The position numbers were made by a program, and so were the translations under genes. A stretch of 64,000 nt of DNA, taken from sequence record PP680568.1. One strand, written 5' to 3'. This document shows, in pieces, positions 20,901 through 55,239 of this stretch. The stretch comes from Enterococcus phage VRE9_2. The notes under the pieces were generated by a model. The model had not been told where the DNA came from and did not search any database. It saw nothing but the letters and a program-made list of their open reading frames with translations. How positions within the stretch are numbered: the first letter of the stretch is position 1; every line of letters starts with the position of its first letter.

Positions 20901-22950
20901 TTGGAATGAGGCAAATGATGCTATTAACGAAATGGCTGATTCAATTAGCGACGCCTTATTGAAAAAACTTGAGTTAGCTCAAAAACGTTTTGAATTATTC
21001 ACTCAATCAGTTGAGGATGGATTCCAAAAAATGTTTGGTACTTGGGGATTAGATGGGGTCATTGATGATTTTGATAAACTTACTGAAAAACAAGATAAAT
21101 ATTTCAGTAACTTTGAAAAATTTACAAACATCAGTAGTAAAATCAAAGAAATCAACGACGAAATTGCTAAAACACAAGACCCTGAACGCGCCAAAGAATT
21201 AGCAGACTTTAGAGATAAAGAATTATCTGCTCTCTTGGCTCAAGATAAAGTTTCTCAAGATGATTATGATCGTGCAATGAAAATGTATGATATTAAACAA
21301 AAAGAATTAGCTCTACAAGAACGGGAAAATGCAAAACGTACAGCCCAACTAGTTCGTGATGCTAATGGTAATATGACTTATGAATATGTTAGAACTGAAA
21401 CAGAAGATTTATCAAGTGAAATTGCAGACTTACAGAAACAAAAAGATGAATTATATGCTTTTGATTCTGATAAGGTAAGAGAATCTGCTAAAGGTGTATT
21501 TGATACTATTTCTAAATATCAAGATAAAATAAAAGAATTACAAGATAAAGGATTAGACCCTGCAGAATATAAGAAAGAGTTGCAAAAACTTCTTGATGAA
21601 GCAGAAGATGAAATTAAAGATAAAACTGATGAAATGAATAAATGGTTAGAAAATGCTGGGAAAGATGGATTAAGTAATCTACAAGGTATGATTGCAAATG
21701 GTACTATTACACCAGACCAGTTAGGGGTAGATAAAAATACTTTATCAAGTATTTTCTCAGCAATGAAAGATGGCACCTTGACAGTACAAGATATGTTAAG
21801 CGGAGACTTTGATGATTTTGCAAGTTCTATTGGTATGACAGCCGATCAACTTAGTGGTACAATGGATAAATTATTAGAATTAATCTTAGGAGATAACATG
21901 GATATTGCAGAAGCAATGATGGACGCAAGTAATAAATGGACTTCTACTGCTCAACAAAATGTAAATAACTTAGGAAACGCTTATGCTGAGTATATGTCTC
22001 AAGCTACAAAAGTTTTAAATGACTATAGCAGTTCTACAGGAAGATTAAACGATTTGTTAAATCAAACAAATCAAGCTTCTCAACAAGTTATTTCAACTAT
22101 TGATAAACAAACTCAAGCAATGCTAAGAAGTCAAAGACAAACTGATGCAACATCAAATAGTGTTTTAAATCTTCAAAACAGATTAATTGGTTCAAACGGA
22201 AATTCAGGACTGTTCGGTTCAATGGTTCAGCTACAACGTACTATGAACGAACAATTGCAACCTTCAATGGTAAATACTGGTAAACAAACCGATATATTAA
22301 GTGGAAAAACTTATAATTCAGCAGTAAAATATAATACAATGGGTAATGAAGCTAGATTTGCTTACCAACGAGTTAATGCGTTTAGCGATCAACCTACAAA
22401 AGTAGCAATGTCAAATATTGATAGAATTACTGGTAAAACAAATAACACTGCTGGAGCATTTAGAAATGTTAAACGTGATGCAAACGAAGGTAGAAATAGT
22501 ATTATTGACTTCAGTTCAGCAATTAGTACTTTAGCTGGATATGGTTCTTATAAAGTATCTGGAGGTTCTAAGAAGAAAGCTGCCTCGTTAGATAGTGGAG
22601 GTTATACAGGAACATGGAGTAATTCAACAAATAATGCTGAGGGTAGAATGGCAATTTTACACGAAAAAGAATTAATTCTTAATAAAGAAGATACAAAAAA
22701 TATTTTAGAATCAGTTAAAATGCAAAGAGGACTAATGGAATCTATTAAGGGCAGAGGCTCTTCTGTAAAAAATAGTATTCAAAACATGAGTTCTAATATT
22801 TCTAATATTCAAAATAGTAATAGAATGAGTACAGTTGAACAAAACATTACTCTTTCACCAAGTTTCCCTAATGCTAGAGATCGAAGTGAAATTGAAGCAG
22901 CGTTCGAAGGCTTATTAGGCAAAGCATCAACTTATGTTGGAAAGAAATAG
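14929..22950 (+). CDS. Tail tape measure protein (2673 aa)
   Basis: Largest ORF. N-terminal minor-tail/TMP-type region (AVAGKYQAETFRAFMNNQERYNQLLGEAYDSAGTSAQQQLVYMD, glycine-rich transmembrane-like segments). Long coiled-coil repeats. Position after the major tail gene and chaperone. Confidence 0.9.
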   Translation: MANNVDVGLKFKTTYEGLDAGKQDLKELKNLMDSIGKDGVKLNLKDGEIEQAKLQISALERSIREAEQSGGDFGRIFQSNLNAVQNEAKQTATSVSKVEKEIKSLNQTSNNGGGFKSISNAARLATKEIQGTTGQIDQLRVNLQQGMGQTIAFGAIGAVTGAVTDALNVTKQLDEISTDISIVSGKTRKEMEGYRDAAVDAADALGTTTKDYLDASLIFEQQGGQAAYYAKELAEATVTAANISNVATDQMSEYLTATINGFQLLKEKGGEAGTYITDVMAKLGAASGSDLAEIATGLTRTANTAKDVGFQFEEIATMIATVSEVTRRTPETIGNAFKSMLTSFTQLREAGEEEVEAFTNKVQEAFKLGGIEDISLFDNGNLRDAADIFKDIAARWQTMNKEQQSLVSEAVAGKYQAETFRAFMNNQERYNQLLGEAYDSAGTSAQQQLVYMDSLKAKGEQLQNAWQGAVNTVVDSDMFKGVLEDATNFLKIIGDAKSGLGGLATAIAPIVGIGGQMFGANQIGELYSNNRLNKQAKEITASLEKLKVAQEGNLTALQEEYKSAAQVNQIMSTLGPEAAKNYEEVTKEITKLDEKLKDIPKSAEEVKAKTEEAAKSLTLNGYYKGVDEKNVTRAAKGLENEKDPRILSNINELNKAKEALQKAEQVSLDQLSTLEGKVTLLDKRASSSIKKLQEELVIWEDDYRGALYENKALADKFSADIDKVREGIDQQYDSYSGLLKVRKEAKVIEDQIRDSMKSQEYEALDNVSKAQKELENKAKKVVLEEQYTNEMKEQNKIIADRTVLENKAQSTAQIAKRTELIQKGVRGMSLAYSTIVPIIATYNSVQEKSISKQDGVIAGLQTTSAMLMASMNPWGMAAGAAAGAFSLIVDKFDLFKSRGEKAKEVNEQLTKTFMSLQETVNGNISNLNDIADTYKRFEGVNAEAFINNAPDPSDTEAFEKYNKNLEDYDNLAGKIAQTNPELVKGYDDTGRAIIDLSKDFETLMEQQKTARTDNYQMLSANRNSFIVQQVSDLQNAKSSMNDYSVEVAKLTKELEKAKKQGKGEKVDDILKDLTNAQNKISEVQKTFNETKANIQSSIVVPFNEANDEFNKLVDKTPELKEAFETFSDTYMNSNFLAGMASENDEEGMKNLVQNMSLIKDKFTEIAQQDPGKAQEFLDKIAKSSEWAKLALYDVQGNIETLQEKMAEAADPITDGAQSRALSFVDKVIPEKDVEKAQKRIGELASDLEEKVEDANKMRFDFSKAEGADFTGDRKEIENINDKIEDYDKLQDVMSDVSEEYSRTSRTVEGFNENLGHVGDIDAAMQALDQLQKNGLDDNQLEVLKQKFPELEKSMRESAEKGTEAFKQNASNLYDILSEEHEAAITGMVMNNEQFYGVWMQNNSKTINKIAEDYGIDAANYQTLAEYKNALQSLSLENLQVIAGQEVETNNKKNKEILAGEAVHVSNMISLTDIWSNSNLTYTQKLVASFLNAYDDMANGLGNALSYMEQLLKGWLNTAHKALGDFFGGMIKKLPKGMRDALGLDEIDKWGEGGVSESFFKKLDPSTLAKDYVDKKNQEAQKEQEKKDSLIQQILEGKFKNKNGLSNEDLMKKLNLDKPQSLEGMNAIPRDAENKDVEKDGKIEKKDKDSKKDVDNLELELDRYYKLDHILSEIEKRYSELSDAKDAAYGNDRLNIMKQEEQLLAQKAGVLKQYTAELNKEQDELRNKLASQGFTFTANGDIDNLNQKLTDLQNAANSKTGDAKEDAIDAVKKIQEEASRYQDITFNLIPDKQKTLNEIKKQLSEIARERIEYTVKLRVDKDEFKSDVLDVIKEMQDSYADLDEKAQIVGKEMKQALDNVSYWQSMMNQVRNDRGLTDSDRQDLLQEYNKNLLDAVSKARSGYKELLEVQADFVKQSVEAINKVNDRYDNLFEKAGQLAAKTEELYGTKAYGKIVGYFDTQEKAINGQVKNLQEAQRRMIKYRNSVKQGSDAWNEANDAINEMADSISDALLKKLELAQKRFELFTQSVEDGFQKMFGTWGLDGVIDDFDKLTEKQDKYFSNFEKFTNISSKIKEINDEIAKTQDPERAKELADFRDKELSALLAQDKVSQDDYDRAMKMYDIKQKELALQERENAKRTAQLVRDANGNMTYEYVRTETEDLSSEIADLQKQKDELYAFDSDKVRESAKGVFDTISKYQDKIKELQDKGLDPAEYKKELQKLLDEAEDEIKDKTDEMNKWLENAGKDGLSNLQGMIANGTITPDQLGVDKNTLSSIFSAMKDGTLTVQDMLSGDFDDFASSIGMTADQLSGTMDKLLELILGDNMDIAEAMMDASNKWTSTAQQNVNNLGNAYAEYMSQATKVLNDYSSSTGRLNDLLNQTNQASQQVISTIDKQTQAMLRSQRQTDATSNSVLNLQNRLIGSNGNSGLFGSMVQLQRTMNEQLQPSMVNTGKQTDILSGKTYNSAVKYNTMGNEARFAYQRVNAFSDQPTKVAMSNIDRITGKTNNTAGAFRNVKRDANEGRNSIIDFSSAISTLAGYGSYKVSGGSKKKAASLDSGGYTGTWSNSTNNAEGRMAILHEKELILNKEDTKNILESVKMQRGLMESIKGRGSSVKNSIQNMSSNISNIQNSNRMSTVEQNITLSPSFPNARDRSEIEAAFEGLLGKASTYVGKK

Positions 22951-23039: not shown

Positions 23040-25025
23040 ATGGATAAAAGCCAAGAACTTTTTGATGCGATTCGATTAATTGCAAGGAACGAAATAGAAA
23101 AACAAACATCTACAGATACTGTGATTGGTACAGTAATTGAACGTGTCGAATCAAGTGACGCTTATAAAGTTTCTTATCAGAATATTGAAATTCTGGCAAG
23201 TTCAATGGGTGGACGATACAATGCTGGAGATTCTGTATATGTAATGCTTCCTAAAGGAAGATTAGATGGGGTCAAATTTATTATTGGTAAAACCAATGAT
23301 AGAACTCCAACTATAACAACAAATGCAAATGGACTATCCGATTCTACTCTTGGTATGATTCAGGATATTATTAACAATTTTAACGATTTAATTTCAGATA
23401 ATAAGGTTACTCCAGTAGAAAAACAATCTTTACAAATTCAATGGGAACAAATTAAAAAATCTTATCAAGAGATTTTAAATAACTCTGCACCTTATCCAGA
23501 AATTGATTTAACTGGTTTAAATTCTAAATATAAAACTTTAGAATCATTAATGAATATTATTTTAGAAAATATGGAAACTACTACAGAAGTTGATGGTAAT
23601 ACAGTAAGACAAGTTTTATCTAATTATTTAACTGAAGATACTTCAGTAAGAGTTTTAATCCAAGAGGCACTAAGAGATGAAATTACTTATAAAGCTGATA
23701 TTGTTTCAACAAATGGTGAGAGTTTTAAAAATGGTGTAATTAATACTATTTTACAAGTAATTGCAATGAGGGGTAAAAAAACTATAACTTCATCTTTTGA
23801 GCCAGAAAATATTAGATGGTATAAAATGAAAGATGATGGTTCTATTTTACCTAATTGGTCTAAGACTGGTAGAAGTATTCCTATTACATCAGAGGACGTT
23901 GACATTAAACAAGTATTTGTGGTACAATTATATGTAGAAGAAGCAATGGTAGCACAAGATACAATAACTATAGTTGATTTAAATGATATAGAAAATATTA
24001 AATTAAGTTTAACTCCTAAATTAAGTAGAACTCAAACGTTTGACCCAACCACTAAAAATATTATACCAGATTATACTATACAAAATCAAGTCATTCAAGC
24101 CAAGACTCTAAAAGGAGCAGATGATATTACTTCTTTGGTGACACATCAATGGTATTATAATGGAGAATTAATTACTAATGATGGCAGGTTTGAAATACAA
24201 AATAATGCTTTATTTATCAAAAGAAATCTAATGGATTCAGAAAATCCTACAATGATGATTGATTGTAAAGTATCTTATTATAGTGAAGAATATAAATTAA
24301 CACTTGAAGATTCTTTATCTTTAGACTTTTCTTATGTATCTAATGGAGAAGATGGAGAAGATGGGAAAAACGCCCTTTTAGTTAATGTTCTGCATCCATA
24401 TGGTACAACTATTAAGAATAAACAACAATCTCTTCTCTTGGTGTCATTACAGGCATATTTTGCTGATAAAGACGTTCTTTCTTTGTTAAGTAATAGAAAA
24501 TGGTTTTATGCAGACGAATCCGTTAATTCTTCCAGCCCTTATTATGATAAAGATGGTGGAGTAGGCTGGTCTTTAATTAGCGAGACAAATAATTTGAATG
24601 GAGCTTTAAATGGATATGATACAAATATCCTGTCTATTTCTGGAAATGGCTTTAACGGGAGCATTTCTATCAAGGTGGTAGCTTATTTTGAAGAATTTAA
24701 AGGAGCTGCAACAACTACTTTAATTGATTCTACTGATCCAATTACAGGAGTTATCTTGGGCAATACGCAATTAAAAAATGGTGAGCCAACTTCATTACAG
24801 ATAGAAGCTTATTTAGGACAAATGAAAATAACAGATACTTCTAATTACACTTTTGTGTGGAATTTAGAATTAATAGATAATAGTTCTAGAATGATTGGTC
24901 CGATGGAACCTTTTACCACAAGGACGGTATGGCCCAAATATGGAGAATCTATTATATTAGAATGGGGAGACATTCCTGAAAACGATAATGTTTATGTAAC
25001 ATGTAAAATATATCGTAATGAGTAG
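23040..25025 (+). CDS. Distal tail / baseplate protein (661 aa)
   Basis: First gene after the tape measure. N-terminal small beta-barrel-like domain (VIGTVIERVESSDAYKVSYQNIEILASS...SVYVMLPKG), then a long beta-rich extension. Confidence 0.4.
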   Translation: MDKSQELFDAIRLIARNEIEKQTSTDTVIGTVIERVESSDAYKVSYQNIEILASSMGGRYNAGDSVYVMLPKGRLDGVKFIIGKTNDRTPTITTNANGLSDSTLGMIQDIINNFNDLISDNKVTPVEKQSLQIQWEQIKKSYQEILNNSAPYPEIDLTGLNSKYKTLESLMNIILENMETTTEVDGNTVRQVLSNYLTEDTSVRVLIQEALRDEITYKADIVSTNGESFKNGVINTILQVIAMRGKKTITSSFEPENIRWYKMKDDGSILPNWSKTGRSIPITSEDVDIKQVFVVQLYVEEAMVAQDTITIVDLNDIENIKLSLTPKLSRTQTFDPTTKNIIPDYTIQNQVIQAKTLKGADDITSLVTHQWYYNGELITNDGRFEIQNNALFIKRNLMDSENPTMMIDCKVSYYSEEYKLTLEDSLSLDFSYVSNGEDGEDGKNALLVNVLHPYGTTIKNKQQSLLLVSLQAYFADKDVLSLLSNRKWFYADESVNSSSPYYDKDGGVGWSLISETNNLNGALNGYDTNILSISGNGFNGSISIKVVAYFEEFKGAATTTLIDSTDPITGVILGNTQLKNGEPTSLQIEAYLGQMKITDTSNYTFVWNLELIDNSSRMIGPMEPFTTRTVWPKYGESIILEWGDIPENDNVYVTCKIYRNE

Positions 25026-25055: not shown

Positions 25056-28000
25056 ATGGCATTAACTCAAGTAGGTACAGCTTCTGCTGGTATTTCAAAA
25101 GTAATTGATGGACAAAATCAATATATTTTCTGGAGATTCTCAGCAAATCCAGATGGAAATCCTATGACAGAAAAACCAACAGAAGACACAAAATATATGG
25201 GGGTTTATACAAGTACGCAAAATAAACCTTCTGATAACCCAAGTGAATATATCTGGACTAAAATTAAGGGTGAAGATGGTTCAGATGGTCAAAATTCTTA
25301 TAGTGGTATCTTAACAGATGAACTTATTGCTGTTAATACAGATTCAGATGGAAATAACGGCAATTTCTCTAAAGCTAGTACATCAATTATTTTATTTGAG
25401 GGATCAAGAGAAAATACATCAGAGTGGACTATTTCAGTTGAAGTGACTGCAGGAATTCAAGGAAGTTTAACTGCTTCAAAAGATACTTATAAAGTATCAG
25501 CAATGACTGTAGATTCAGGAGAAATAACTTTTACCGCTAAGTATAAAACAATTACTTTAACAAAAGTAGCTAAGATTGTAAAAGTAAAACAAGGAGCTGC
25601 AGGAATCCCTGGGAAAGATGGTGTTGATGGACGTACACAATATACACATATTGCTTATGCAGATAATGAATCTGGACAAGGTTTATCTTTTAATCCAGCT
25701 AATAAAAAATATATTGGTATGTATGTTGATTTTACAGAAACAAATTCATCTGATCCAACCAAATATAAATGGAGTTTAATTAAAGGGGAAGATGGAAAAG
25801 ATGGATTGCCTGGTGCTCCAGGAGAAGATGGACGTACCCCATACTTCCATACAGCATATACCAACAGCACTGACTTCGGTACTTATGATTACTCAGGAAA
25901 CCCCAACTTGATGAAAAATATAACAAACGATAGTTGGACTGCCGAGGGTGCCATGAAGATAACTGCGGCAGATGATTACCTAGAACTAGTAAAAGATACT
26001 GCTGGAAGATTTGGTACTGCAAAGATTCATAATATACCAGCATTACGCACAAACTCACAATATACTACCTCTTTAGAATTTTATCTTAAGTCGGGTACCT
26101 CTACCGAAGATTTAAAAAAATGTAATATTGCTATCGAAGCAACTAATACAAGCGGGCAAGTTTATTATAGTGTTATTTATATGAACAATATACCGAAGAT
26201 GGATGAGTGGGTTGATTTAACAAGTACCTTTACTACAAACACCTATACAGATAATCTTACTAACTGGAAGTTTAGGGTATATGTCCACCCAGATGTTTCT
26301 GTTTCTATGAGAATTAGAAATAGCATTAAGGTTGAAGAGGGTTCAAAAGCCACACCATATCAACCTAACATCAAGGGTGCCCCATGGTACTTTAGTACTG
26401 TTCCTCTTGGAGAAAATATCGCAGATAAAACAGTTAAATTTCCAATTAATGTTAATACGTACAAGGTATATCAAGGAGATATGCTTGAGTCGTTTGAGGT
26501 TGGACAAACATATACTGTAACTATTAAGGGTAGAAAACCAGCTCAAAAAACATTTAGTGCTTACAATGCTGGTACTGTTTTTCTAGGAAATTTAACTCCA
26601 GTAGAAGGATTGTCAGATGTATGGACGAGTACTTTTAAAGTATCATCAATTAATTCTGGTTATCCTAATAGATTACAAATATATCAACTGCCAAATGATA
26701 ATCAATATGGAGACGTTCAAATTGATTGGGTTAAAATTGAAAAAAGTCCAGTTTCAACACCAAATATTGATGCTTATAAATATTTAGGTAATTACACAGA
26801 CTATGAACAAGAAGACTCTTTAAATCCTACTAAATATAAATGGAATTTAATTAAAGGAGAAGACGGTTCAAATGGAACTAATTCATTTCTACATGTAGCT
26901 TGGGCTAATACAAACGAATTTCCTGAATTTGTTAAAAATGCAAGACCAAATGTTCTTAGAACGGCGGATAAAATTTCTATGTTCTCTAATAATGGTGCTA
27001 TATATCCTACAGACAGTTATTGGTTAACTGATGAGGATGGTAGAGTTTTTAATAGGGCTGAAAGAAGTAATCTTGATTTAAATCCTAATAAATTTTCTGT
27101 ATATAATGGTATAGGAACGGTTTATAAATCTACTGACCCAATAAATTCAGGAGACCTAACAATGCCTATCGGTGGAAAGAAAATTGTAATTTCTGGAAAA
27201 TGGAGAGCTTCTAAAGAAGTTAGATTAGTTATAATGGCTAAAGTTATTGCTGATGGAGTAACTAAAGCTCTTCCACGAGATGGAGAAGTTGTTACAGTTT
27301 CAACTGAATGGAAAACTTTTTCAACAGTTCTAGATTATGTTGACCCAAAAACTTCTACTATTAGATTTTTACCTTCTTCAGATACTAATGGATGGACAAG
27401 CGCTGAGGGAGTGCAGTTAGATCAAAAAGATCTTAAAATTGAAATAGTTGAAGAAGGAGAGAGTGAAGAACCAACTCCTTGGGTACCTCCAATTACAAGA
27501 GGACTATTTAATCCTAAAAATATCTTTGAGGGTGGAAATAATCGTCAGCCTAATGCTTATCAAGGAGCAGTAGCAACAGTTACTAAAAATGTAGAAGTTC
27601 CTGAATGGGGAGTCAAAGATGCTTGGACTTTTAAAACTACTGGTGGAACAAATGTCATAAAAGCAACCCTCGGAATTAAGCAAACTGGAGCATCTTTAGC
27701 AGATGGGAATACATTCTACAGAAGTAATTTTCACGTTAAAAATAATCATGAAACTTATCCATTGCATATAATCGCTAATGGTGGAACTTCTGTTGTTATT
27801 CCTCCTAAAAAAAGTGGATATTTTGGAACTCCAATTAATCAACATGCTGCGAAAAATAATCTACAATGGAATTTTCAAGTAGCTGATGCAGCAAGAGATG
27901 TAGATTTTACAATGTGGAACCCAGAATTTTATGCTTATGATATCAAGCATGATTTCACAGAAGAAGAACCAAACGAAAGTAGACTTTATCTTGGAACTTA

Positions 28001-31000
28001 TACAGATTCTAACTTAAATGCTAGCGGAAATCCAGCAGATTATGAATGGAATAAAGTTAAAGGTGATACTGGTGAATCTGCAAAAACGTTAATTTTATCA
28101 GCTTCTTCAAATACTGTTAAAATTAATCAAGATTCTTCAGTCCAATCAGACACTATAACTCTTCAAGCTAATATGCAGAATATGGTAGGAACTGCTACTT
28201 TTAGTGCCATTCCATATATTGGAACAACACCACAAACAGCAATAACATTGGGAGGAGCAGGAAACATAAGAACATTTTCTACTTCCTCTTGGAATAAAAA
28301 TTGGACTTCTTTGGTGGTTACTGCTACTTTCGAATCATTTATTGATAAGCAAACAATTATTTCTGTTAAAGAAGGTAAAGATGGCGCTGATTCAATAACT
28401 GGGTTATTAACAAATGAATCGGTGACATTAGCAGCCGATAAAAATGGTACCGTTGAGAGCTTCTCAGAGGCTTCAGGAACGTTTAAAGTGTTTGATGGAC
28501 TATCTGACGTTACTGGTAAAAACGTTGCTTATACATTAAAGAGTAGTTCAGGAGGAACATTTAATATTAATACTTCTACTGGAGTATATAATATGACTGC
28601 GATGAGCAAAGATTCTGCTACAGCAATCTTTGAAGCTACTTATAAAAATATTAAGATTGAAAAAATATTAAATGTAGCTAAATCTAAAGCAGGGAAAGAA
28701 ACATATACTTATACAAAATATTCTAATTCAAAAGATTTTGGAAATTATGATTATAGCGGGAATCCTAACCTCAGTCCCAGATTGAATGCGGCATGTTTTT
28801 CTTCAGGTACTGGCGCAACAGTTTCAGATGATAATGATGAGATTGTGTTTGCCTTAGATGGCACAAATCAACTATCGAAGTACGCTCTCAGAGCACAAAC
28901 GCCGTTAGTAGAAGGAAAACAATACACGATTAGTTGTGAAATCATGTTAGAAGATGGTTTCACTGGCGATCCGTCCGGAATAAAACTACTACACGCATAC
29001 CTGCCTGGTGGTATCACTGTTTTGCAGACAGATACAGTTCCTAAAAATGAATTGAATAAATGGCAGAAGCTTATTGGAACACGAACGGTAACATACGGTT
29101 CTAGCTTACCAAGTGAATGGTATCCATTATTTAGAGATATTCGAAATCTTAAACCATCTGGTAAAGTTAGGTTAAGGAATATCAAAATTGAAGAAGGTTC
29201 AACAGCCACACCATATCAACCTAACTTATTAGATGAGCCTTACTGGCTAGGTAACACTCCTTTGAATAAGAATATTGCTGATCCTGCAAAAACATTTCCA
29301 ATTAAAACGAGTTCGTACAATATATATCGGGGTAAAAATACTGAAAAATATCAAGCAAACCAAACCTATACGATTACCATGAAGGCAACTAAACCAGCTT
29401 CTCAACAGTTTGGTGTTTATTTGTTAGCTGGTGCAATGGGTGTTGGCAATATGAAGCCTGTAGAAGGTTTAACGGATGTTTGGCAACTAACCTTTAAAGT
29501 TTCACAAGCTCATATCGATGGTGGTATAACTGATGTTTTAGATGTATATCAACTTCCAAACACTAGCGTCGGTGCGTGTCAAATAGACTGGCTTAAGTTT
29601 GAAAAAGGCGATACTAGAACCCCAAATATAGACTCATATAAATATATGGGGATCTATGTTGGAGGAGAAGGCGAACAACCACATGACCCAACCCAATATG
29701 CTTGGAGTCAGATTAAAGGTAATGATTCTACAGCTTATTCATTATTATTAAGCAGTCAAGTAATGTCATTACCAAGAGGAGCAAGTAAACTAGTTCCAGA
29801 AAATATTACTATTTCTGGTATGGCTCAAACAGGCGAAAAATCTATTGAGAATATCAAATCTCGTATTGTTGTAGAAGAAACTACTAATGGAACTACATGG
29901 ACTACAAAGTATGATGCTGACGCATTAACCTATACTTATACTCCTTCTTCATTAAATGTTTTGTCTGCACGAGTTAAAATGTATGTTGCAGGAGCTAAAA
30001 ATGTACAATTAGATCAAAAGAGTATTAATATTGTTAAAGATGGTTCGAATGGTTCTAATGGTTCAAGTAGTTATACATGGGTTCGTTATTCAGAAAATGC
30101 TAATGGTAATCCAATGACTACAACACCTAATAGCAAAACTAAATACATTGGTATCGCTATTACCCAAACTTCAACTGCACCAAGTGCTTATGGTGATTAC
30201 ACTTGGAGTAGAATCAAAGGAAGTGGCGGACTTGTAGCTAAAGTTTATTCTAATGGTGGAACAAACATTGAACAATCTCCAATTCAAATTAATGTAGAAA
30301 CACAATCTGATGGGGATATAGTAGAACCAGATAAAGTAACATGGTATATGTCAAAAGATTCTTCAGTAGAATGGACAGCAATTACAGCTGGAAATGGAAT
30401 TACCTTAAATAAAAAATATATAGTTGTTGAACCAGTAGTATTCTTAGAAGCTAATTCAATTAGTTTTAAAGCTCAAGTAGAATATAATTCTATGGCAGCT
30501 TTTGATTATATGACTGTAAACAATGGAAGCTTCGATGCAATGAAACCATTAATTTTACGACAACCAACTGCCCCACTTAATCCTTATCCTGGATTATTAT
30601 GGCTAGATACTTCTAGTGGCAGTGGTGATCCTTTAGATAAAACTAATCCAAGTTTAGTTTATCGTTGGGGTAAATCAGCAGTTGAAAGTGTAATTGGAAC
30701 TGAATATGCACATTATGCTTATGCAAATACACCAACTGGATACCAGGAAGATGGTGTTACACCAGACCCAAGTTTTAGTGTTACTTATAATAGTAGTCAA
30801 AAACCTATGTATATTGGATACTGTGTAACTGATACAGAACCAGACCCAACTACCCCTAATTCCTATAATTGGAAGTCAATCACTACAGAAGATGGTAGCG
30901 AAGACGTTAATGGCGCCAAAGGTATTGCGCAAGAGAAAACTGAAACAACTTACGAATGGGGATGGGTTGTTCTAAGTGCTTCTGATTTAGAAATGCTTCC

Positions 31001-32657
31001 TTGGTTAAATAATGAAGATGGTTCTACAATCATTGACTGGATTTATCAAATTACCCAAAAAACTTCTGATGATTCTATTGTTCAAACTGTAGTGGGTTCA
31101 GAAGATATGTCGAAAATATATGCTAAAACTGATGCGGTTGATGAATTAAGTAATGCTAACCATGAATTATCAGATAAATTAGAAGAATACAATAAACAAA
31201 TGCAAGATGCTTTTGCTGGAATTGATACAACGTATGTAAATAAATCAGAATTTGAACAAGAAATGAATAAATTCAATTTTGGTATTGATAAAGCTGGTGG
31301 GGTTAACTTAATTAGAAACTCAACAGGTTTCCAATGGGAAGATACAGCACCTAGTGATGAAATGTTAACAAATCCTAAATTTGAAGGAACGATTTCAACT
31401 ACTGGATTAGATAATGGTTGGGTGTACAATGCTGCAGGTATAGGTCAAGTTATAGGAGCAGAAAGCGATTTCCCAGAAAATAAAATTATGCGTATTGGTG
31501 GAACAAATTCGCCAACTAAATACAGCTATAGTAAAAATGTTCCTGTCTCACCAGGACAGTTAATTAATATTTCTGGACAAGTACGTATTCCAAATACAAT
31601 TGGAGATACCAAAAATGCTTATCTATCAATTAGATTTTATGCTGCTGGAAGTGATCCATCATTTAATGCTGCTTCACAAACAATTGGCAATGGACAAGGT
31701 GTTATTACTCTATTTACAGATAAAACAAATTTTGCTGGAACAGTATTTGGAACAGACTCTTATACTGTAAAAACAAATAATATTGTTCAAGATATCTGGA
31801 GTAATTACTCTATTAATATAACTATACCAACTGGAGCAGCATTTATGAAAGTATTGTTATACAATGATTCAACAACTCCTACTAATTATTTTGACTTCAG
31901 AAAACCTAGCGTAGTTTTATATTCTGGAATGTTTGATTTCTGGCATAAAAATGATTCAGCTAATGCCCAAATTAGACAAATTTTAGGTGACGAATCACTA
32001 GAAGAACTTGGTTTAATTGCTGGTTTTGAATTGAAAGGTTTAAGATATAAACTAGACCAAGATATTCTTTTACCTAACCCAAATACAGAATATACTCTAA
32101 GCTGGTATGCTAATAAAATTAGTCAAACAGGAACAAGCAAATACTATGTAAAAGTATTAAATACAAAAACTGGAGCAGAAATAGCTGTTTCAGAAGCTTC
32201 TGCTGACACTATTGGATATCAACGAATGTCTGTTACTTTTTCAGTAACTAACACAAGTGCAGTTACTATTAGAATTGGTTTAGAAGGAGAAGGAAGCGCA
32301 GATGCAACATTATCCGCAGCAGGATTAATGATTAACATTGGTCCATATCCTCTCTCTTGGCAGTCTCATCATGAAGAAGTATATTCTACAAATGTTCGGA
32401 TTGATAGTAGTGGTTTGAAAGTATTTAATTCTGATTACGATGGATACAATGTAATGACTCCTAGAGAGTTCGCAGGTTATTATCGTAATGGAGAAGTTTA
32501 TGAAAGAGTATTTACTCTAAACAAAGATACAACGAAAGTTAAAAAATTAGAAGCGCAAGAAAGATTTATGATGAGACCTGTGCAAATTGTATCGGTTGAT
32601 TCTCCAACTATTCAAGGTTGGGCCTTTGTTGGATACAATGGTGAAGATACTGACTAA
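25056..32657 (+). CDS. Giant tail fibre / adhesin-like protein (2533 aa) with repeated modules
   Basis: At least 8 repeats of a Y-x-G-x-Y...dP(s/t)xYxW(s/t)xIKGEDG motif. Short collagen-like GXY runs (GIPGKDGVDG, GKDGLPGAPGEDG). Three EEGxxATPYQPN / EEGESEEPTPWVPP junction motifs. An internal ~180-aa module duplication. Confidence 0.7.
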   Translation: MALTQVGTASAGISKVIDGQNQYIFWRFSANPDGNPMTEKPTEDTKYMGVYTSTQNKPSDNPSEYIWTKIKGEDGSDGQNSYSGILTDELIAVNTDSDGNNGNFSKASTSIILFEGSRENTSEWTISVEVTAGIQGSLTASKDTYKVSAMTVDSGEITFTAKYKTITLTKVAKIVKVKQGAAGIPGKDGVDGRTQYTHIAYADNESGQGLSFNPANKKYIGMYVDFTETNSSDPTKYKWSLIKGEDGKDGLPGAPGEDGRTPYFHTAYTNSTDFGTYDYSGNPNLMKNITNDSWTAEGAMKITAADDYLELVKDTAGRFGTAKIHNIPALRTNSQYTTSLEFYLKSGTSTEDLKKCNIAIEATNTSGQVYYSVIYMNNIPKMDEWVDLTSTFTTNTYTDNLTNWKFRVYVHPDVSVSMRIRNSIKVEEGSKATPYQPNIKGAPWYFSTVPLGENIADKTVKFPINVNTYKVYQGDMLESFEVGQTYTVTIKGRKPAQKTFSAYNAGTVFLGNLTPVEGLSDVWTSTFKVSSINSGYPNRLQIYQLPNDNQYGDVQIDWVKIEKSPVSTPNIDAYKYLGNYTDYEQEDSLNPTKYKWNLIKGEDGSNGTNSFLHVAWANTNEFPEFVKNARPNVLRTADKISMFSNNGAIYPTDSYWLTDEDGRVFNRAERSNLDLNPNKFSVYNGIGTVYKSTDPINSGDLTMPIGGKKIVISGKWRASKEVRLVIMAKVIADGVTKALPRDGEVVTVSTEWKTFSTVLDYVDPKTSTIRFLPSSDTNGWTSAEGVQLDQKDLKIEIVEEGESEEPTPWVPPITRGLFNPKNIFEGGNNRQPNAYQGAVATVTKNVEVPEWGVKDAWTFKTTGGTNVIKATLGIKQTGASLADGNTFYRSNFHVKNNHETYPLHIIANGGTSVVIPPKKSGYFGTPINQHAAKNNLQWNFQVADAARDVDFTMWNPEFYAYDIKHDFTEEEPNESRLYLGTYTDSNLNASGNPADYEWNKVKGDTGESAKTLILSASSNTVKINQDSSVQSDTITLQANMQNMVGTATFSAIPYIGTTPQTAITLGGAGNIRTFSTSSWNKNWTSLVVTATFESFIDKQTIISVKEGKDGADSITGLLTNESVTLAADKNGTVESFSEASGTFKVFDGLSDVTGKNVAYTLKSSSGGTFNINTSTGVYNMTAMSKDSATAIFEATYKNIKIEKILNVAKSKAGKETYTYTKYSNSKDFGNYDYSGNPNLSPRLNAACFSSGTGATVSDDNDEIVFALDGTNQLSKYALRAQTPLVEGKQYTISCEIMLEDGFTGDPSGIKLLHAYLPGGITVLQTDTVPKNELNKWQKLIGTRTVTYGSSLPSEWYPLFRDIRNLKPSGKVRLRNIKIEEGSTATPYQPNLLDEPYWLGNTPLNKNIADPAKTFPIKTSSYNIYRGKNTEKYQANQTYTITMKATKPASQQFGVYLLAGAMGVGNMKPVEGLTDVWQLTFKVSQAHIDGGITDVLDVYQLPNTSVGACQIDWLKFEKGDTRTPNIDSYKYMGIYVGGEGEQPHDPTQYAWSQIKGNDSTAYSLLLSSQVMSLPRGASKLVPENITISGMAQTGEKSIENIKSRIVVEETTNGTTWTTKYDADALTYTYTPSSLNVLSARVKMYVAGAKNVQLDQKSINIVKDGSNGSNGSSSYTWVRYSENANGNPMTTTPNSKTKYIGIAITQTSTAPSAYGDYTWSRIKGSGGLVAKVYSNGGTNIEQSPIQINVETQSDGDIVEPDKVTWYMSKDSSVEWTAITAGNGITLNKKYIVVEPVVFLEANSISFKAQVEYNSMAAFDYMTVNNGSFDAMKPLILRQPTAPLNPYPGLLWLDTSSGSGDPLDKTNPSLVYRWGKSAVESVIGTEYAHYAYANTPTGYQEDGVTPDPSFSVTYNSSQKPMYIGYCVTDTEPDPTTPNSYNWKSITTEDGSEDVNGAKGIAQEKTETTYEWGWVVLSASDLEMLPWLNNEDGSTIIDWIYQITQKTSDDSIVQTVVGSEDMSKIYAKTDAVDELSNANHELSDKLEEYNKQMQDAFAGIDTTYVNKSEFEQEMNKFNFGIDKAGGVNLIRNSTGFQWEDTAPSDEMLTNPKFEGTISTTGLDNGWVYNAAGIGQVIGAESDFPENKIMRIGGTNSPTKYSYSKNVPVSPGQLINISGQVRIPNTIGDTKNAYLSIRFYAAGSDPSFNAASQTIGNGQGVITLFTDKTNFAGTVFGTDSYTVKTNNIVQDIWSNYSINITIPTGAAFMKVLLYNDSTTPTNYFDFRKPSVVLYSGMFDFWHKNDSANAQIRQILGDESLEELGLIAGFELKGLRYKLDQDILLPNPNTEYTLSWYANKISQTGTSKYYVKVLNTKTGAEIAVSEASADTIGYQRMSVTFSVTNTSAVTIRIGLEGEGSADATLSAAGLMINIGPYPLSWQSHHEEVYSTNVRIDSSGLKVFNSDYDGYNVMTPREFAGYYRNGEVYERVFTLNKDTTKVKKLEAQERFMMRPVQIVSVDSPTIQGWAFVGYNGEDTD

Positions 32658-32661
32658 AAAT

Positions 32662-32704
32662 AAATGGTCATTCCTAATTATTTGGGAGTGACCATTTCTT
32701 ATTT
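32662..32704 (+). terminator. Rho-independent terminator after the fibre gene
   Basis: Stem AATGGTCA/TGACCATT with a long loop, T-rich tail. Confidence 0.45.
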
Positions 32705-32739
32705 CCCAAGAGAGAAGAGGAAAAGGAGGAAATTTAATA

Positions 32740-35118
32740 ATGGCAACAAGTGGAGAGAAATATACTGCTTTTGCTCGACATCGTTTAAATTGTAGATGGT
32801 CGATAAATCGACAAGATATTGCTGGTAACTATACCATTGTCACCGGTTTTTTATATTTACAATCTATGGACGCTTACGGAGCTATTCAGGCTTCTGCTGT
32901 AGGTCAAGCACAAGTTACAATTAATGGACAAAAACAAACTGAAAACGCAACTTCTCAATTAAGTGCGCGTCAAAATAAATTATTACTAGCTAAAGATTAT
33001 CGAGTAGGACATAATAATGATGGTTCAAAAACGACTACTGTTTCTGGGAGCTATTTTGTAAATGTTACATTCGCAGGAGTTTATTATGGAACAATATCGG
33101 TTGGGAATTTCAATGCAAGCTTACCTAAAATTCCTAGACACAGTTCTTTGAATGCAGTACCAACATTTACAGTTCCTAATGGATGTTCTTTTTCTATTAG
33201 TAGACAATCTAATTTTACTCATAATCTAACTTTTTGGGTCCAAAATAGAGCAAACCCTAATTTATCAGATGATAGTCATTGGACTTATTTAACTAATGTA
33301 GATAATGTTGCTACAAGTGGTAAATTTAATTTTACAGATGGACAACTAGCGACTATTGCACAAAGGATTAAACAATTTGCTGGTAATGGTGGAAATATCC
33401 TAGGAAAAGTTAAATTATGGACGAATGGCGTATCCGGTCTTAGCCAACAACGAACAGTTCAGATTGCTCATCCAGCACCAGTAACACCTAAGTTAGCAAG
33501 CTTTAAATTAACAGCAGGAAACAAACTTGCTATACAATTAGATAATTTTCAATCAAACAATAAATTTAAATATGATATTACATTTAAGTGCGCAGGTTGG
33601 ACTAAATCTTGGAATAATGTAACTACTAATAAAATAGATTGGACTCTAACCCAAGACGAAGTTAACAATATACTTCAAAGATTTACAGGCGCTTCAAAAA
33701 ATGGTTTTGCTATTGAGGCAAATTCAAAATTAGCTGGGAGCCAATATAGGAACACTGTTGGTTCTAGTGGTTCTGCAGAAGTAGATACAAATACAGCATC
33801 TCCCTTAATAACCGAAGGTTTTTCTCATGAAGATACAAATCAGGTGTCTATTGCTATAACAGGTAATAAAAAAATACTTTTAGATAAAAATTCTACTTTA
33901 AGAGTAACAGTTCCTAGTTCAATAATAACAACTAGAGACTATGGTAAGCCAGCTAGTGTTGAGGCATCATTTGCAGGAACCAAAAAAACAGTTAATTATG
34001 CAGAAGGAAATATGGTTTTAGACTTTGGTATTATTACAGGAACAACAGGGAACTTAACTGTGACTGCTATTGACAGTCGAGGATTAAAGGGGAGTGCTTC
34101 TTATGAAGTTACGGTACTTCCATATAATATGCCTGTAATTAATTTTAATGTAAGAAGAAATAACAGTTTTGAAACAGATACTTTAGTTTCAGGTACTTCT
34201 ATTTGGTCTCCTGTTGATGGAAAAAATAAAATTTTATCTGTACAATATCAAATAAGTGGTTCAGACAAGGTAGATATTCCTTTTACTACAGCAGCAAATG
34301 TTTTAAGTATTACAGCGCAAACATTGCCACTGGACAATTCTCAATCTTGGACAGTTACGATATTTATTACAGATAAAACTGGAACATATTCTAGATCGTA
34401 TAATATTACAGAAGGTAAACCCCTAATGTTTATCGACCCAAACCGCAAATCTGTTTCTTTTGGAGATTTTCCAACAACTGGTGAAGAAAGAGGATTACCT
34501 GGCGTTATAGAAATTGAGGCAGAAAGATATCATGATTCAGGCAAAACTGGTATTCAAATGAATAATAGTGATATCTCTGGTCTAAATGGAATATTCTTTT
34601 CTAATGATACAATGAATAATCATGGAGAAGGCTTACATTTTATTAAAAGTGGTAAACCTGTTAATTCTAATAATTTAGATGATTACGACTATGTTTATAT
34701 GAGAGATGGCTCTCTCTATATTAATAATGATAGCGTTCCACTCTTTACTATCAATCCAGAAAAATCTGGTTTTGTAGAGAAAAAATTATGGTCTGGGGCT
34801 TGGTATATCGGTAATACTCAAAGAACAACTATATCTAAAAGTATTTATGCTTGCCCGAATGGTTGGGCATTATTCTTTTCTAAATATTCTAATGGAACAG
34901 CGTCTGATGTAGACTCCGTATGCGTACTTCTTCATAAAGCTACCATACAATCGACCGGTACTAATCATAAACGTGTACTAGTTTCGACATATGCTAATAC
35001 AATAGCAGTTAAAGCTTTTCATATCGAAGACCACGGAAAAACAATTGTAGGTTCTAATGACAACAATAATTCAGGAGAAGGTGCTAAAACAGTATTAAGG
35101 GCGGTGTATGAATGGTGA
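32740..35118 (+). CDS. Putative receptor-binding / tail fibre protein (792 aa)
   Basis: Beta-rich and N/T/S-rich. Follows the giant fibre. Last gene before the small accessory genes and the lysis cassette, which is a typical RBP position. Confidence 0.45.
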   Translation: MATSGEKYTAFARHRLNCRWSINRQDIAGNYTIVTGFLYLQSMDAYGAIQASAVGQAQVTINGQKQTENATSQLSARQNKLLLAKDYRVGHNNDGSKTTTVSGSYFVNVTFAGVYYGTISVGNFNASLPKIPRHSSLNAVPTFTVPNGCSFSISRQSNFTHNLTFWVQNRANPNLSDDSHWTYLTNVDNVATSGKFNFTDGQLATIAQRIKQFAGNGGNILGKVKLWTNGVSGLSQQRTVQIAHPAPVTPKLASFKLTAGNKLAIQLDNFQSNNKFKYDITFKCAGWTKSWNNVTTNKIDWTLTQDEVNNILQRFTGASKNGFAIEANSKLAGSQYRNTVGSSGSAEVDTNTASPLITEGFSHEDTNQVSIAITGNKKILLDKNSTLRVTVPSSIITTRDYGKPASVEASFAGTKKTVNYAEGNMVLDFGIITGTTGNLTVTAIDSRGLKGSASYEVTVLPYNMPVINFNVRRNNSFETDTLVSGTSIWSPVDGKNKILSVQYQISGSDKVDIPFTTAANVLSITAQTLPLDNSQSWTVTIFITDKTGTYSRSYNITEGKPLMFIDPNRKSVSFGDFPTTGEERGLPGVIEIEAERYHDSGKTGIQMNNSDISGLNGIFFSNDTMNNHGEGLHFIKSGKPVNSNNLDDYDYVYMRDGSLYINNDSVPLFTINPEKSGFVEKKLWSGAWYIGNTQRTTISKSIYACPNGWALFFSKYSNGTASDVDSVCVLLHKATIQSTGTNHKRVLVSTYANTIAVKAFHIEDHGKTIVGSNDNNNSGEGAKTVLRAVYEW

Positions 35119-35864
35119 CAAAAGAGAATGAATATAAAGATATAGTGCTTGTTTTAGACGAAAATAATTTTGTTGAACAATGGGCGGAGAATTTGAGTGG
35201 AGAAGGAAATTTTTTTCCGATAACGCTTCCCTCAGATCATCCTTTTTTCTATAATAACATAGCTTCTTTTAAACTTGAAAATTCTGAATTAGTTTTTGTT
35301 GAAGATAAATATATTGAGAATACAAAAAAGATTCAAAAGAATAATTTAGAGATAGCCTGTAAAGAAAAAATTTTAGAAGGTTTTGAATATGAATTTGAAG
35401 GAGAATTTTATCATATAAGTTATTCTGAAAATAAACAAAGTAGGTTTGAAGAAACAAAAACCCTTTTTTCTACAAAAACAATAAACATTATTGATTGGGA
35501 ATTTATTCAAAATAATGGTACTATAGTTATTAAAACATTAGATGAATTAGAATTTTTAACTTTGTATACTTTTGCTAGTATGGTAAAAATGAATAAAATC
35601 AATAAGTTAAATAATAATTTATTCTCTCTTATTGATAATGCAAAAACAGAAGAAGAGATATTGTCGATAAACTGGAATTCTGTGAAAGACGTCTTACCTG
35701 AAAAACCAATTATTGATTTAAATGGAGATGGCGAGATTAGCCAAGAAGAATTTGATGCTTTGATGAAAGAAAATAAAGAACTTAAACAAAAAGTAGAATT
35801 AAATGAAATGGCTTTAGTTGATGCTATTAATATGTTATCTAATATGATTATCGGACAATCTTAA
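35112..35864 (+). CDS. EF-hand-containing protein, translationally coupled to the RBP-like gene (possible fibre chaperone/assembly factor)
   Basis: ATGGTGA overlap with the upstream stop. Canonical 12-residue EF-hand loop DLNGDGEISQEE followed by FDALMKENKELKQKVELNEMAL coiled-coil. Confidence 0.45.
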   Translation: MVTKENEYKDIVLVLDENNFVEQWAENLSGEGNFFPITLPSDHPFFYNNIASFKLENSELVFVEDKYIENTKKIQKNNLEIACKEKILEGFEYEFEGEFYHISYSENKQSRFEETKTLFSTKTINIIDWEFIQNNGTIVIKTLDELEFLTLYTFASMVKMNKINKLNNNLFSLIDNAKTEEEILSINWNSVKDVLPEKPIIDLNGDGEISQEEFDALMKENKELKQKVELNEMALVDAINMLSNMIIGQS

Positions 35865-47916: not shown

Positions 47917-47944
47917 AAAAAGAGACCATATAGGTCTCTTTTTA
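47914..47944. terminator. Bidirectional rho-independent terminator at the convergence of the two arms
   Basis: A7 - AGAGACC ATATA GGTCTCT - T5. Overlaps the stop codons of both flanking convergent genes. Confidence 0.75.
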
Positions 47945-48427
47945 GTTCCAATTAATTTCTTGGTGTGAAGCATAATAGCCAATCATAATTGCATCGGCTT
48001 CGTCTTGTGTTGCAGTAATATCAAATATTTCTAACACTTTAGCTTGAGCATTTCTTTTTTGTTCTATTCTATTTTTACCTTTAATCTTAGCAAACCCCTT
48101 CCATTGAGAAGCATATATAAAATCAAAATGAATTTCTGGATGAGCTTCTAAAACTCCAACAGCAAGAACACCTTGTAATTGGGCTAATTGTTTAAAAGTA
48201 GTTTTATTTTGTTGCATTTGAATATCTTCAAACATTATTTTTATTTCTTCTTTAGGATATTTTTCTTTAGTATATTCAATTAAGGCTAATACATTTGCTT
48301 TCTGTTTTGAATATCTTGAAAAATCGTCTCCTTCAGCAGAAAATTTTCCATAGGCAATTAATTCTTGATTCTTATAAACAGAATAACCTGTTACAACTGT
48401 TGCTTGGTCTAAACCTATAAAAATCAT
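47942..48427 (-). CDS. RuvC-like Holliday junction resolvase
   Basis: N-terminal MIFIGLDQATVVTGYSV is the RuvC motif I, with acidic residues spaced as in phage RuvC-like resolvases. 161 aa. Confidence 0.7.
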   Translation of the reverse strand: MIFIGLDQATVVTGYSVYKNQELIAYGKFSAEGDDFSRYSKQKANVLALIEYTKEKYPKEEIKIMFEDIQMQQNKTTFKQLAQLQGVLAVGVLEAHPEIHFDFIYASQWKGFAKIKGKNRIEQKRNAQAKVLEIFDITATQDEADAIMIGYYASHQEINWN

Positions 48428-54660: not shown

Positions 54661-55239
54661 CAATTCATTATAATTAAAATAACATTTTCTACATACAGGA
54701 ATATATTCGTTGTCTCCAATTAAAATTTGTTCACCCCTATAAATAGCTTCTCCATTAATTGTACGTAAATTCATAGTTGCTTTTTTATCGCATAATGTAC
54801 ATACAGTTTTTAACTCTTCTAATTTATCTGCAAATTCTAACAATGCTTGAGAACCTTCAAATAAATTATTTTGAAAATCATTTTTTAAACCCCAACAGAG
54901 AACAGGAATATTTCCCTCATCTACTACTCCTGCTAAGGTAATTACCTGTTCTCTTGATAAAAACTGGGATTCATCCACTAGGATAGCATGGACTTTTTCT
55001 TTTTTAGCTTTTTCTAAAATTTCTTCTCTGCTATCATTTAAGTATTCTGCCTCAATATTAAAGCCAGTTCTAGAAACGATCTTTTTAAAACCGCTTCTAG
55101 TATCTAAATCAGAAGTATAAATTAATACATTTTTGCCTTGTTGAGCATAATTATAAGCAGTTGTAATTAAAGATAAACTTTTTCCTGAGTTCATAACTCC
55201 ATATTTAAAATATAATTTTGCCATTTTCATTTCTCCCAA
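54652..55239 (-). CDS. tdk: Thymidine kinase
   Basis: P-loop GVMNSGKS, DESQF, C-terminal CxxC...CxxC zinc ribbon (CTLCDKKA ... CRKCY). 195 aa. Confidence 0.85.
   Translation of the reverse strand: MGEMKMAKLYFKYGVMNSGKSLSLITTAYNYAQQGKNVLIYTSDLDTRSGFKKIVSRTGFNIEAEYLNDSREEILEKAKKEKVHAILVDESQFLSREQVITLAGVVDEGNIPVLCWGLKNDFQNNLFEGSQALLEFADKLEELKTVCTLCDKKATMNLRTINGEAIYRGEQILIGDNEYIPVCRKCYFNYNELVK

Follow-up and report, generated by a model that had tools for sequence, protein, structure and literature searches.

A long tail fibre of Enterococcus phage VRE9_2 carries tandem carbohydrate-binding-like cassettes whose two halves appear to reassort at three conserved junction zones

A tandem domain resembling carbohydrate-binding module (CBM) family 22 has been described in the Enterococcus phages phiSHEF13 (ORF 41), phiSHEF14 (ORF 15) and phiSHEF16 (ORF 178) (Alrafaie et al., Virus Res 2024, PMC11269942). 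In the passages of that article on the domain, dependence on the enterococcal polysaccharide antigen (EPA) is shown for SHEF13, binding of EPA by the domain itself is only proposed, and the CBM22 ligand-binding residues are reported absent in the SHEF14_15 group. For T-even phages, a passage in PMC3157838 citing Tetart et al. 1998 describes recombination between conserved motifs of gp37/gp38 (His boxes, glycine-rich motifs) that swaps adhesin specificity, and passages on phages of lactic acid bacteria describe CBM insertions in evolved Dit, in Tuc2009 BppA and in Tal/neck-passage proteins (PMC4742702, PMC6669499, PMC7291167). Here we analyse a 64,000-nucleotide stretch of Enterococcus phage VRE9_2 (PP680568.1), referred to as the window, and within it a modular tail-fibre gene whose single open reading frame (ORF) encodes 2533 amino acids (aa). 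The fibre contains two cassettes, each made of two CBM-like domains, A and B, and each inserted into a small repeat unit, R. A left and a right junction motif border the cassette, a 39-bp anchor lies between A and B, and comparison with other phages indicates that A and B are exchanged independently of each other at these three places.

The cassette belongs to the same family as the SHEF domain. A tblastn search with the second copy against phiSHEF13, phiSHEF14 and phiSHEF16 gave 44-46% identity over 89-95% of the query (E 1e-69 to 2e-85), and SHEF14_15 holds the left motif, the anchor (IKVERGSTATPYQPN) and the right motif. VRE9_2 differs in belonging to another group of phages and in having two copies within one 2533-aa protein. 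The passages of PMC11269942 that contain the selected terms searched mention no independent sub-domain reassortment, breakpoint location or insertion into a small repeat unit. The T-even adhesin loci follow the same principle as the window with unrelated proteins, folds, hosts and motifs; exchanges have been demonstrated there by crosses, whereas those described here are deduced from comparative sequence only. As in T-even and Streptococcus thermophilus loci of this type, the variable segments of the fibre gene are bounded by short conserved motifs with mosaic breakpoints. In the ORF18 antireceptor of the S. thermophilus phages DT1 and DT2, collagen-like repeats are said to flank the variable region VR2, as Duplessis and Moineau reportedly found in 2001. 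The collagen-like runs of the window are likewise homology break points, and the region made up of these runs and R2 (25560-25870) is 71% identical over 150 nucleotides (nt) to S. thermophilus host-specificity genes (DT2 AF348739, P7602, D1811). Tail-fibre genes of Enterococcus hirae phages of 68-72 kb and of a Ruminococcus gnavus phage match the same region at 67-70% identity. Unlike in the S. thermophilus antireceptor, the variable cassettes of the window are tandem CBM pairs with non-collagen borders, and collagen is one of several junction types. The adhesion devices of lactic phages resemble the fibre in having CBM-like jelly-roll domains inserted in loops of tail proteins, but identity is 12-18%, and the scaffold is the galectin domain of Dit there and a ~55-aa fibre repeat here.

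We examined the extent and the predicted fold of the cassettes. The repeated region spans about 355 aa (aa 251-607 versus aa 1205-1560), and the two copies share 31% of their amino acids over the first half and 43-50% over the second. A BLAST comparison of the entire protein with itself gave the identity match alone, and the repeats became visible only by chunked BLAST. The two copies are in frame and 2856 bp apart, and their DNA is 35% identical between A1 and A2 and 58% between B1 and B2. An AlphaFold2 (AF2) model of aa 254-610, built from 47 sequences with a mean predicted local distance difference test score (pLDDT) of 82, consists of two beta-sandwich domains, A followed by B. In this model the KVEE of the anchor forms the final strand of domain A, and GSKATPYQPNIKGAP forms the connection from A to B, with pLDDT <50 at model residues 184-190. 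Foldseek searches of the PDB placed the tandem CBM22-1/CBM22-2 of Xyn10C (4xup, E=2.8e-9) among the top matches, together with CBM16, CBM15, the CBM domains of Vip3A and the BppA chain of the Tuc2009 BppU-A-L tripod (5e7t_B); this resemblance is at the level of the fold only, at 9-17% identity. BFVD gave close matches to baseplate, Dit and BppU proteins of Enterococcus phages and, at 12-18% identity, remote ones to tail proteins with CBMs from Bacillus, Lactococcus and Streptococcus phages, including Lactococcus P078 Dit, the BK5-T receptor-binding protein and the host-specificity protein of S. thermophilus TP-J34. A and B are predicted from these models to adopt a CBM22-like beta-sandwich fold, and by analogy they may bind enterococcal cell-wall polysaccharide. 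Because PF10651, the BppU N-terminal domain, occurs in many homologues and has no match in the fibre protein in a Pfam scan, the module is common to BppU prophage proteins but the fibre is not itself a BppU.

The cassettes reside in the R unit, a ~55-aa repeat (YxHxAY...YxWxxIKGEDG) with seven copies in the fibre, three of which are interrupted by large inserts at one loop. The intact units R1, R2, R6 and R7 follow the pattern YxHxAY...G-N-P-x...T-x-x-P...KYIGxY...YxWxxIKGEDG. R3 and R5 are split at the G-N-P-N / T-P-N loop by the A-B cassettes, and R4 is split at the same place by an unrelated insert. Since the concatenated halves of the split units align with the intact units, the left motif (YSNSxDFGxYDYSGNPN) and the right motif (TPNIDxYKYxG...YxWxxIKG) most probably represent the two halves of a host R unit. 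In Pfam the R unit shows weak, below-cut-off similarity to BppU-like_C (PF21470) and SH3DP. Several features listed in an initial annotation of the window, made from the sequence alone, were recovered as described: the 2533-aa ORF, the short collagen-like runs (which measure 5 and 6 triplets), both 39-mers of the anchor pair exactly as quoted, and a third anchor-like motif near 27450. Its figure of about 60% DNA identity between two homologous modules of ~180 aa agrees with the B halves, which are the modules that it delimited; the homology stands, but the repeated region is about 355 aa long with the anchor in its middle. Its count of at least eight repeats comes down to seven clear copies of YxWxx(I/V)(K/T)G and one degenerate candidate.

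We next to this compared the gene with related phages. Megablast relatives are the Enterococcus phages VRE9_4, H1, VRE9_3 and EF1/EF5 (134-142 kb), with local identities of 88-93%, and no record matched at least 80% of the fibre gene. The gene is therefore a mosaic, with high identity locally and no match across its length. By nucleotide identity, A1 is closest to H1 (93%) and to baseplate proteins of Schiekvirus vB_EfaM_A2 (90%) and Kochikohdavirus Riverwalk (88%), and B1 is closest to H1 (90%); A2 is closest to the prophage-like contig L058 (89%), VRE9_3 (88%) and Kochikohdavirus ECP3 (85%), and B2 to the 42-kb prophage-like contig L042 (87%) and the 135-kb contig L073 (83%). B1 is 80-100% identical to VRE9_4 and only 51-59% identical to the Herelleviridae modules that share A1. 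The relatives carry two to three modules of differing types at corresponding positions.

The positions at which these identities change lie at the junction motifs. Megablast matches to Herelleviridae over gene nt 802-1314 end exactly at the end of anchor 1 (gene nt 1276-1314), and a second set covers gene nt 3691-4180, with anchor 2 at gene nt 4132-4170. In sliding comparisons with Schiekvirus A2 and Riverwalk, identity is 77-100% over A1 (mostly >85%) and about 50% after 26385; with VRE9_4 it rises instead, from 30-47% before 26316 to 80-100% after 26364. For ECP3 the values are mostly 77-100% over 28740-29220 and fall to about 45% past 29280. The clearest example is VRE9_3, which apart from one segment is ~91% identical to VRE9_2 over 28068-35200: identity is at least 90% up to 29229, 50-80% over 29230-29619, and at least 90% again from about 29620. 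In this alignment B2 is a cassette replaced relative to VRE9_3, bounded on the left by the end of anchor 2 and on the right by the right motif. The best match to B2, L042, is 85-87% identical over 29179-29645, and a three-way reading of the sequences puts the VRE9_3 crossover within ~15 nt past anchor 2. Homology to relatives also breaks at 26859-26888 (right motif 1 and the end of R3), and at left motif 2, where homology to H1, EF1 and VRE9_4 stops at 28742-28768 and homology to ECP3 begins at 28746. Further breaks within the gene fall in the collagen-like runs (25594-25604, 25827-25836) and at the ends of R3 and R4.

We surveyed the distribution of the module and the breakpoints across its family. 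There are 185 protein matches, nearly all from Enterococcus, many of them annotated as BppU family and many with PF10651, and 287 IMG/VR stretches carry the module. It is present in 111 of 50,697 phage records, 106 of which are Enterococcus phages, in Herelleviridae, Minhovirus, ~42-kb siphophages (inside Dit-annotated genes), 72-86-kb siphophages, temperate phages and the group of VRE9_2. A family alignment was made from 90 loci, which yielded 80 modules, 72 of them unique, aligned by codon, and all 2556 pairs of the unique modules were scanned by an unsupervised single-step change-point method. Nearly all of the 300 strong steps fall in three zones: 74 in the left-motif zone (alignment nt 30-119), 149 in the zone of the anchor (555-593) and the conserved start of B (540-719), and 72 in the right-motif zone (960-1049). 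The other five comprise four in the A interior and one immediately ahead of the anchor; the B interior has none. Grouped at 80% nucleotide identity, the modules fall into 22 types for A and 26 for B, which occur in 54 combinations; the bipartite graph of A and B types has a cycle rank of 11, so many independent A/B reassortments are required. Mosaics are also evident at the protein level, with A at 23% and B at 100% identity in one pair (P0011 versus P0043) and A at 27% and B at 83% in another (phage A2 versus ECP3).

Some natural proteins contain A alone or B alone, and their tblastn matches start or stop at or near the anchor. Between identical flanks, Minhovirus Zip gp08 (1012-2406 of its locus, L088) is without A and phiSHEF14_15 (1045-2904 of L090) is with A. 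In Zip gp08 the left motif directly joins post-anchor sequence (DNPSLLDAPYY), and the join is at the tripeptide PNL, which is common to the left motif (GNPNL) and the anchor (QPNLL). At 36-41% identity the module was also found in records of Listeria phage LM 4-11-1 and Acinetobacter phage D2SVT (OR846730.1, PQ554527.1), which could reflect cross-genus spread or mislabelled or contaminating prophage sequence. The E. faecium prophage homologues (P0002-P0120) are mostly annotated as 'partial' and lie on short contigs, which suggests that draft assemblies tend to break inside repeated, mosaic BppU modules; mosaic modules may thus account for prophage BppU genes often being broken at contig ends. 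The features of the fibre gene are listed in Table 1.

Table 1 Features of the tail-fibre gene in the window
Feature	Position	Strand	Remarks
Modular tail-fibre/adhesion protein gene, 2533 aa	25056..32657	+	ATG start; single ORF
R1, uninterrupted, ~55 aa	25116..25292	+	YxFWRF...YxWxxIKGEDG
Collagen-like G-X-Y run, 5 triplets	25593-25637	+	flanks R2
R2, uninterrupted	25638-25805	+	
Collagen-like G-X-Y run, 6 triplets	25785-25838	+	flanks R2
R3, split by A1-anchor-B1	25839-26876	+	
Left junction motif 1	25839..25907	+	PYFHTAYTNSTDFGTYDYSGNPN; N-terminal half of R3
Domain A1, CBM-like beta-sandwich (predicted)	25908..26330	+	AF2 pLDDT mostly 85-95; Foldseek CBM22, CBM16, CBM15
Anchor 1	26331..26369	+	VEEGSKATPYQPN; last beta-strand of A1 and start of A-B linker (model)
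Domain B1, second CBM-like beta-sandwich (predicted)	26370..26756	+	AF2 model, Foldseek
Right junction motif 1	26757..26876	+	TPNIDAYKYLGNY...YKWNLIKGEDG; C-terminal half of R3
R4, split by a 334-aa insert (26955-27956)	26886..28082	+	
Third motif, inside R4 insert	27450-27491	+	EEGESEEPTPWVPP
R5, split by A2-anchor-B2	28701-29735	+	
Left junction motif 2	28701..28769	+	TYTYTKYSNSKDFGNYDYSGNPN; N-terminal half of R5
Domain A2, CBM-like (predicted)	28770..29186	+	divergent paralogue of A1
Anchor 2	29187..29225	+	IEEGSTATPYQPN; exact match to quoted 39-mer
Domain B2	29226..29618	+	cassette replaced relative to VRE9_3
Right junction motif 2	29619..29735	+	TPNIDSYKYMGIY...YAWSQIKGND; C-terminal half of R5
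R6, uninterrupted	30057-30239	+	
R7, uninterrupted	30702-30905	+	
C-terminal ~545 aa of fibre	31023..32654	+	phrog_2929 and phrog_6613 (tail fibre/tail protein); 88-93% nt identity to relatives

The two anchors match at 36 of 39 positions (11/13 aa, 10 identical codons in the codon alignment), and no other 13-codon window in the alignment of the two copies scores as well. At no more than 3 mismatches the 39-mer has exactly two copies in the window, with none expected from 100 shuffles. Where amino acids are identical, codons are also identical in 10/11 cases in the anchor versus 58/121 elsewhere (Fisher p=0.009). Among 2090 module pairs of other phages with divergence in both A and B, the anchors match on average at 30.6/39 positions, and since 4.9% of these pairs reach at least 36/39, the value in the window lies in the upper tail but is not extraordinary. 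Whether the match exceeds chance thus depends on the null chosen. We also compared codon identity at identical amino acids with that expected from codon usage. Observed and expected synonymous identities are 0.58 and 0.43 in the anchor (1.35 times), 0.66 and 0.44 in the left motif, 0.63 and 0.46 in the right motif, 0.41 and 0.39 in the A interior, and 0.47 and 0.42 in the B interior, corresponding to ratios of 1.39-1.48 for the left and right motifs and of 1.07-1.12 for the domain interiors. The anchor DNA is conserved mainly because the protein is, its synonymous excess being modest, and since the left and right motifs show an equal or larger excess, the anchor is not special among the junction motifs. 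The excess in the junction zones is in keeping with exchange having shared this DNA repeatedly. When diverged modules are compared, the longest stretches of exact identity (median 22 nt, 90th percentile 34) fall where the breakpoints do, in the three zones.

These results refine what the initial annotation had proposed for the anchor. Related and unrelated phages do break at the anchor, as its own test of the idea had asked, and the 72 modules place the breakpoints in three zones; the anchor as a plausible recombination site therefore passes that test, with two further junctions, YSNSxDFGxYDYSGNPN on the left and IDWLKIEKGxxxTPNI on the right, beside it. EEGxxATPYxP is a boundary motif, made up of the last strand of A and a low-confidence linker in the model, but it marks the A/B junction and not the start of a swappable 180-aa module. 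The claim of a conserved nucleotide anchor is right as to the best-conserved window, and less so as to its meaning, given the part played by protein constraint and the excess common to the other junctions. The third motif had been taken for another such junction, and no breakpoint lies there in the four relatives. The R4 insert cassette in which it lies is common only to VRE9_4 among the relatives (57-80% identity), and its identity profile has a conserved island at 27428-27487 and no sharp step. The domain around the third motif (aa 604-1010) showed no similarity to the A/B profile in hhalign (probability 0.4%), a homologue search with it returned nothing at E<=1e-3, and its single-sequence AF2 model has a pLDDT of 41.

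Taking the architecture, the fold, the distribution of the cassettes and the positions of the breakpoints as observed, we consider it probable that VRE9_2 has a fibre with R-inserted A-B cassettes whose A and B domains are reassorted independently at three junction zones. Recombination crossovers would resolve in these conserved zones, which are the sole places where diverged cassettes keep 20-35 nt of uninterrupted identity, and the anchor would be the internal junction that lets A and B reassort independently. Exchange would most likely take place during co-infection or infection of lysogens, between co-infecting phages and resident prophages. R(A-B) cassettes of this type are present in at least five kinds of Enterococcus phage: Herelleviridae (baseplate proteins), Minhovirus podophages (appendages), ~42-kb siphophages (Dit), temperate phages (BppU) and the group of VRE9_2. 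The likely result would be new combinations of cell-wall-glycan binding and, with them, an altered host range. By analogy, cassette swaps may change host range; both this effect and carbohydrate binding are proposed because of the CBM-like fold and of epa-linked adsorption resistance in other phages, namely that described for Aramis and Athos, two phages of E. faecium (PMC11210271). The module is present in the Dit of dArtagnan, which is related to Aramis.

The duplication that the initial annotation saw in the gene could be taken literally, in which case one A-B module was recently duplicated within the gene and then diverged while gene conversion kept the anchors alike. Such an origin would suit two in-frame copies in one gene, and also the finding that anchor 1 differs from its H1 orthologue at 9/39 positions, though the flanks are 90-93% identical, and from anchor 2 at only 3/39. 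At the sites where anchor 1 differs from H1, anchor 2 sides with anchor 1 in 7/9 cases versus 29/74 outside the anchor (Fisher p=0.036). The clustering of mismatches in anchor 1 is, however, not significant by permutation (P=0.27), the low DNA identity of A1 to A2 and of B1 to B2 does not favour a recent copy, and relatives carry modules of different types at matching positions. Each half of the cassette is far closer to sequences in other lineages, Herelleviridae and prophage-like contigs among them (82-93% identity), than to its partner in the gene; on this ground we reject a recent internal duplication as the source of the two copies, and the account as a whole is very improbable. Two copies are indeed present, but the word duplication misleads. 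A short conversion patch in anchor 1 is suggestive only, from the site pattern, and conversion limited to the anchor may be a minor addition to such a duplication. For a family-wide look at a dip in identity at the anchor, only 3-5 orthologue-like pairs exist.

A more serious rival to independent reassortment at conserved DNA is selection alone: recombination would be illegitimate or independent of homology and occur anywhere, only chimeras joined at domain boundaries would fold and survive, and the anchor would merely be structurally constrained, with no part as a recombination substrate. We regard this as unlikely, and it is the main alternative. The anchor is a domain boundary in the AF2 model, and the window's match lies within the top 5% of the family distribution and not outside it. 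On the other side, the breakpoints coincide with the zones of longest uninterrupted identity, synonymous identity at the junctions is raised over that of the interiors as if DNA had been repeatedly exchanged, and the joins are seamless, in register and without indels. Genes for a RuvC-like resolvase and a RecJ-like exonuclease are also present in the window; like that for a Dda-like helicase, they are treated as context only. None of these points is decisive, and we infer from them that homology, and not only selection for foldable chimeras, guides the crossovers.

Several observations weigh against independent reassortment of CBM-like domains at shared DNA. Because domain boundaries and conserved DNA coincide, selection for foldability alone could yield the same breakpoints. 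The synonymous conservation of the anchor is not above that of the left and right motifs, and the excess at all three could instead reflect codon preference at conserved residues. The loci were retrieved by the peptide patterns YDYSGNP and ATPYQPN, and the set is therefore enriched for junctions conserved at the protein level; the module pairs in the scans are not independent. A Pfam scan of the whole protein at E<=0.1 returned no CBM family, with SH3DP and BppU-like_C as the only matches, both below cut-off. The apparent conversion patch in anchor 1 is weak, with p=0.036 for its site pattern but P=0.27 for the clustering of its mismatches. Finally, donor-like sequences are only 82-93% similar in our comparisons and no parent was identified, and at this similarity none of the exchange events is recent.

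A further-reaching possibility, which we put forward tentatively and think doubtful, is that the R unit is a standard 'socket' and that the three junctions are a shared recombination interface, kept partly by second-order selection for exchangeability, with a CBM pool and intragenic crossover at the anchors as parts of the same system. If so, CBM specificities would circulate as a common pool across at least five unrelated lineages of Enterococcus phages (myo-, podo-, small and large sipho-, and temperate phages). The in-frame anchors, at their spacing of 2856 bp, would then allow unequal crossover and short-patch conversion, and A1-B2-type chimeras and fibres of varied length could arise within one gene.

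The tandem CBM domain (2024) and adhesin recombination at conserved motifs, a classic paradigm, are already known. The independent reassortment of two sub-domains with three base-precise junction zones appears to be new, as do the loop-insertion architecture in a small repeat unit and the breadth of the exchange network. Independent reassortment of A and B would make the fibre a clean Gram-positive example of adhesin shuffling at conserved motifs, with the rule itself unchanged. Phage therapy has prime targets in E. faecium and E. faecalis, vancomycin-resistant strains included, and is limited mainly by host range. The three junctions (left motif, anchor and right motif) may serve as ready-made splice points for engineering fibres with new specificities, and the combinations of A and B types may offer a framework for host-range prediction. 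Domain shuffling has also been described in receptor-binding proteins of Enterococcus phages of Efquatrovirus (PMC13517437). Literature searches with the motif strings ATPYQPN, YDYSGNPN and TATPYQP found nothing, and one on the VRE9 phages returned no description.

Upstream of the fibre ORF lie a 2673-aa tape-measure gene (14929-22950) and a 661-aa tail protein gene (23040-25025), and the 2533-aa protein matches PHROG families for tail fibre, tail protein and host range/adsorption. The product is best explained as an adhesion fibre of great length, from an Enterococcus phage of ~135-140 kb. In 4/4 relatives the corresponding region consists of four coding sequences (CDSs) of about 279, 371, 50 and 2100-2570 aa. 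The ORF in the window is a fusion of the N-terminal 186 aa of the relatives' first CDS, R2 with the collagen-like runs, and the body of the fourth CDS. For the 371-aa and 50-aa CDSs the window has only distant paralogues, inside 23040-25025, and no orthologue. Over the segment 25593-25838 the window is unlike all four relatives, and it is there that the genes are separate in the relatives and fused here.

Among the other genes on the + strand, a 250-aa protein (35112-35864) belongs to a tail-fibre PHROG family and has an EF-hand-like calcium-binding loop at aa 201-220, just under the Pfam cut-offs. An 810-aa protein (36527-38959) combines glucosaminidase, Amidase_2 (just under the cut-off) and NlpC/P60 domains and falls in PHROG endolysin/tail lysin. 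Strand and GC skew change at about 48 kb, at the boundary between the structural and the replication modules. On the - strand are the RuvC-like Holliday-junction resolvase (47942-48427), the Dda-like helicase (55227-56408) and the RecJ-like single-stranded DNA exonuclease (56750-58489). A 1284-aa DNA polymerase ORF (50724-54578, - strand) matches phrog_7513, phrog_21652 and phrog_20695 separately with its three thirds, which suggests that this gene is split in other phages.

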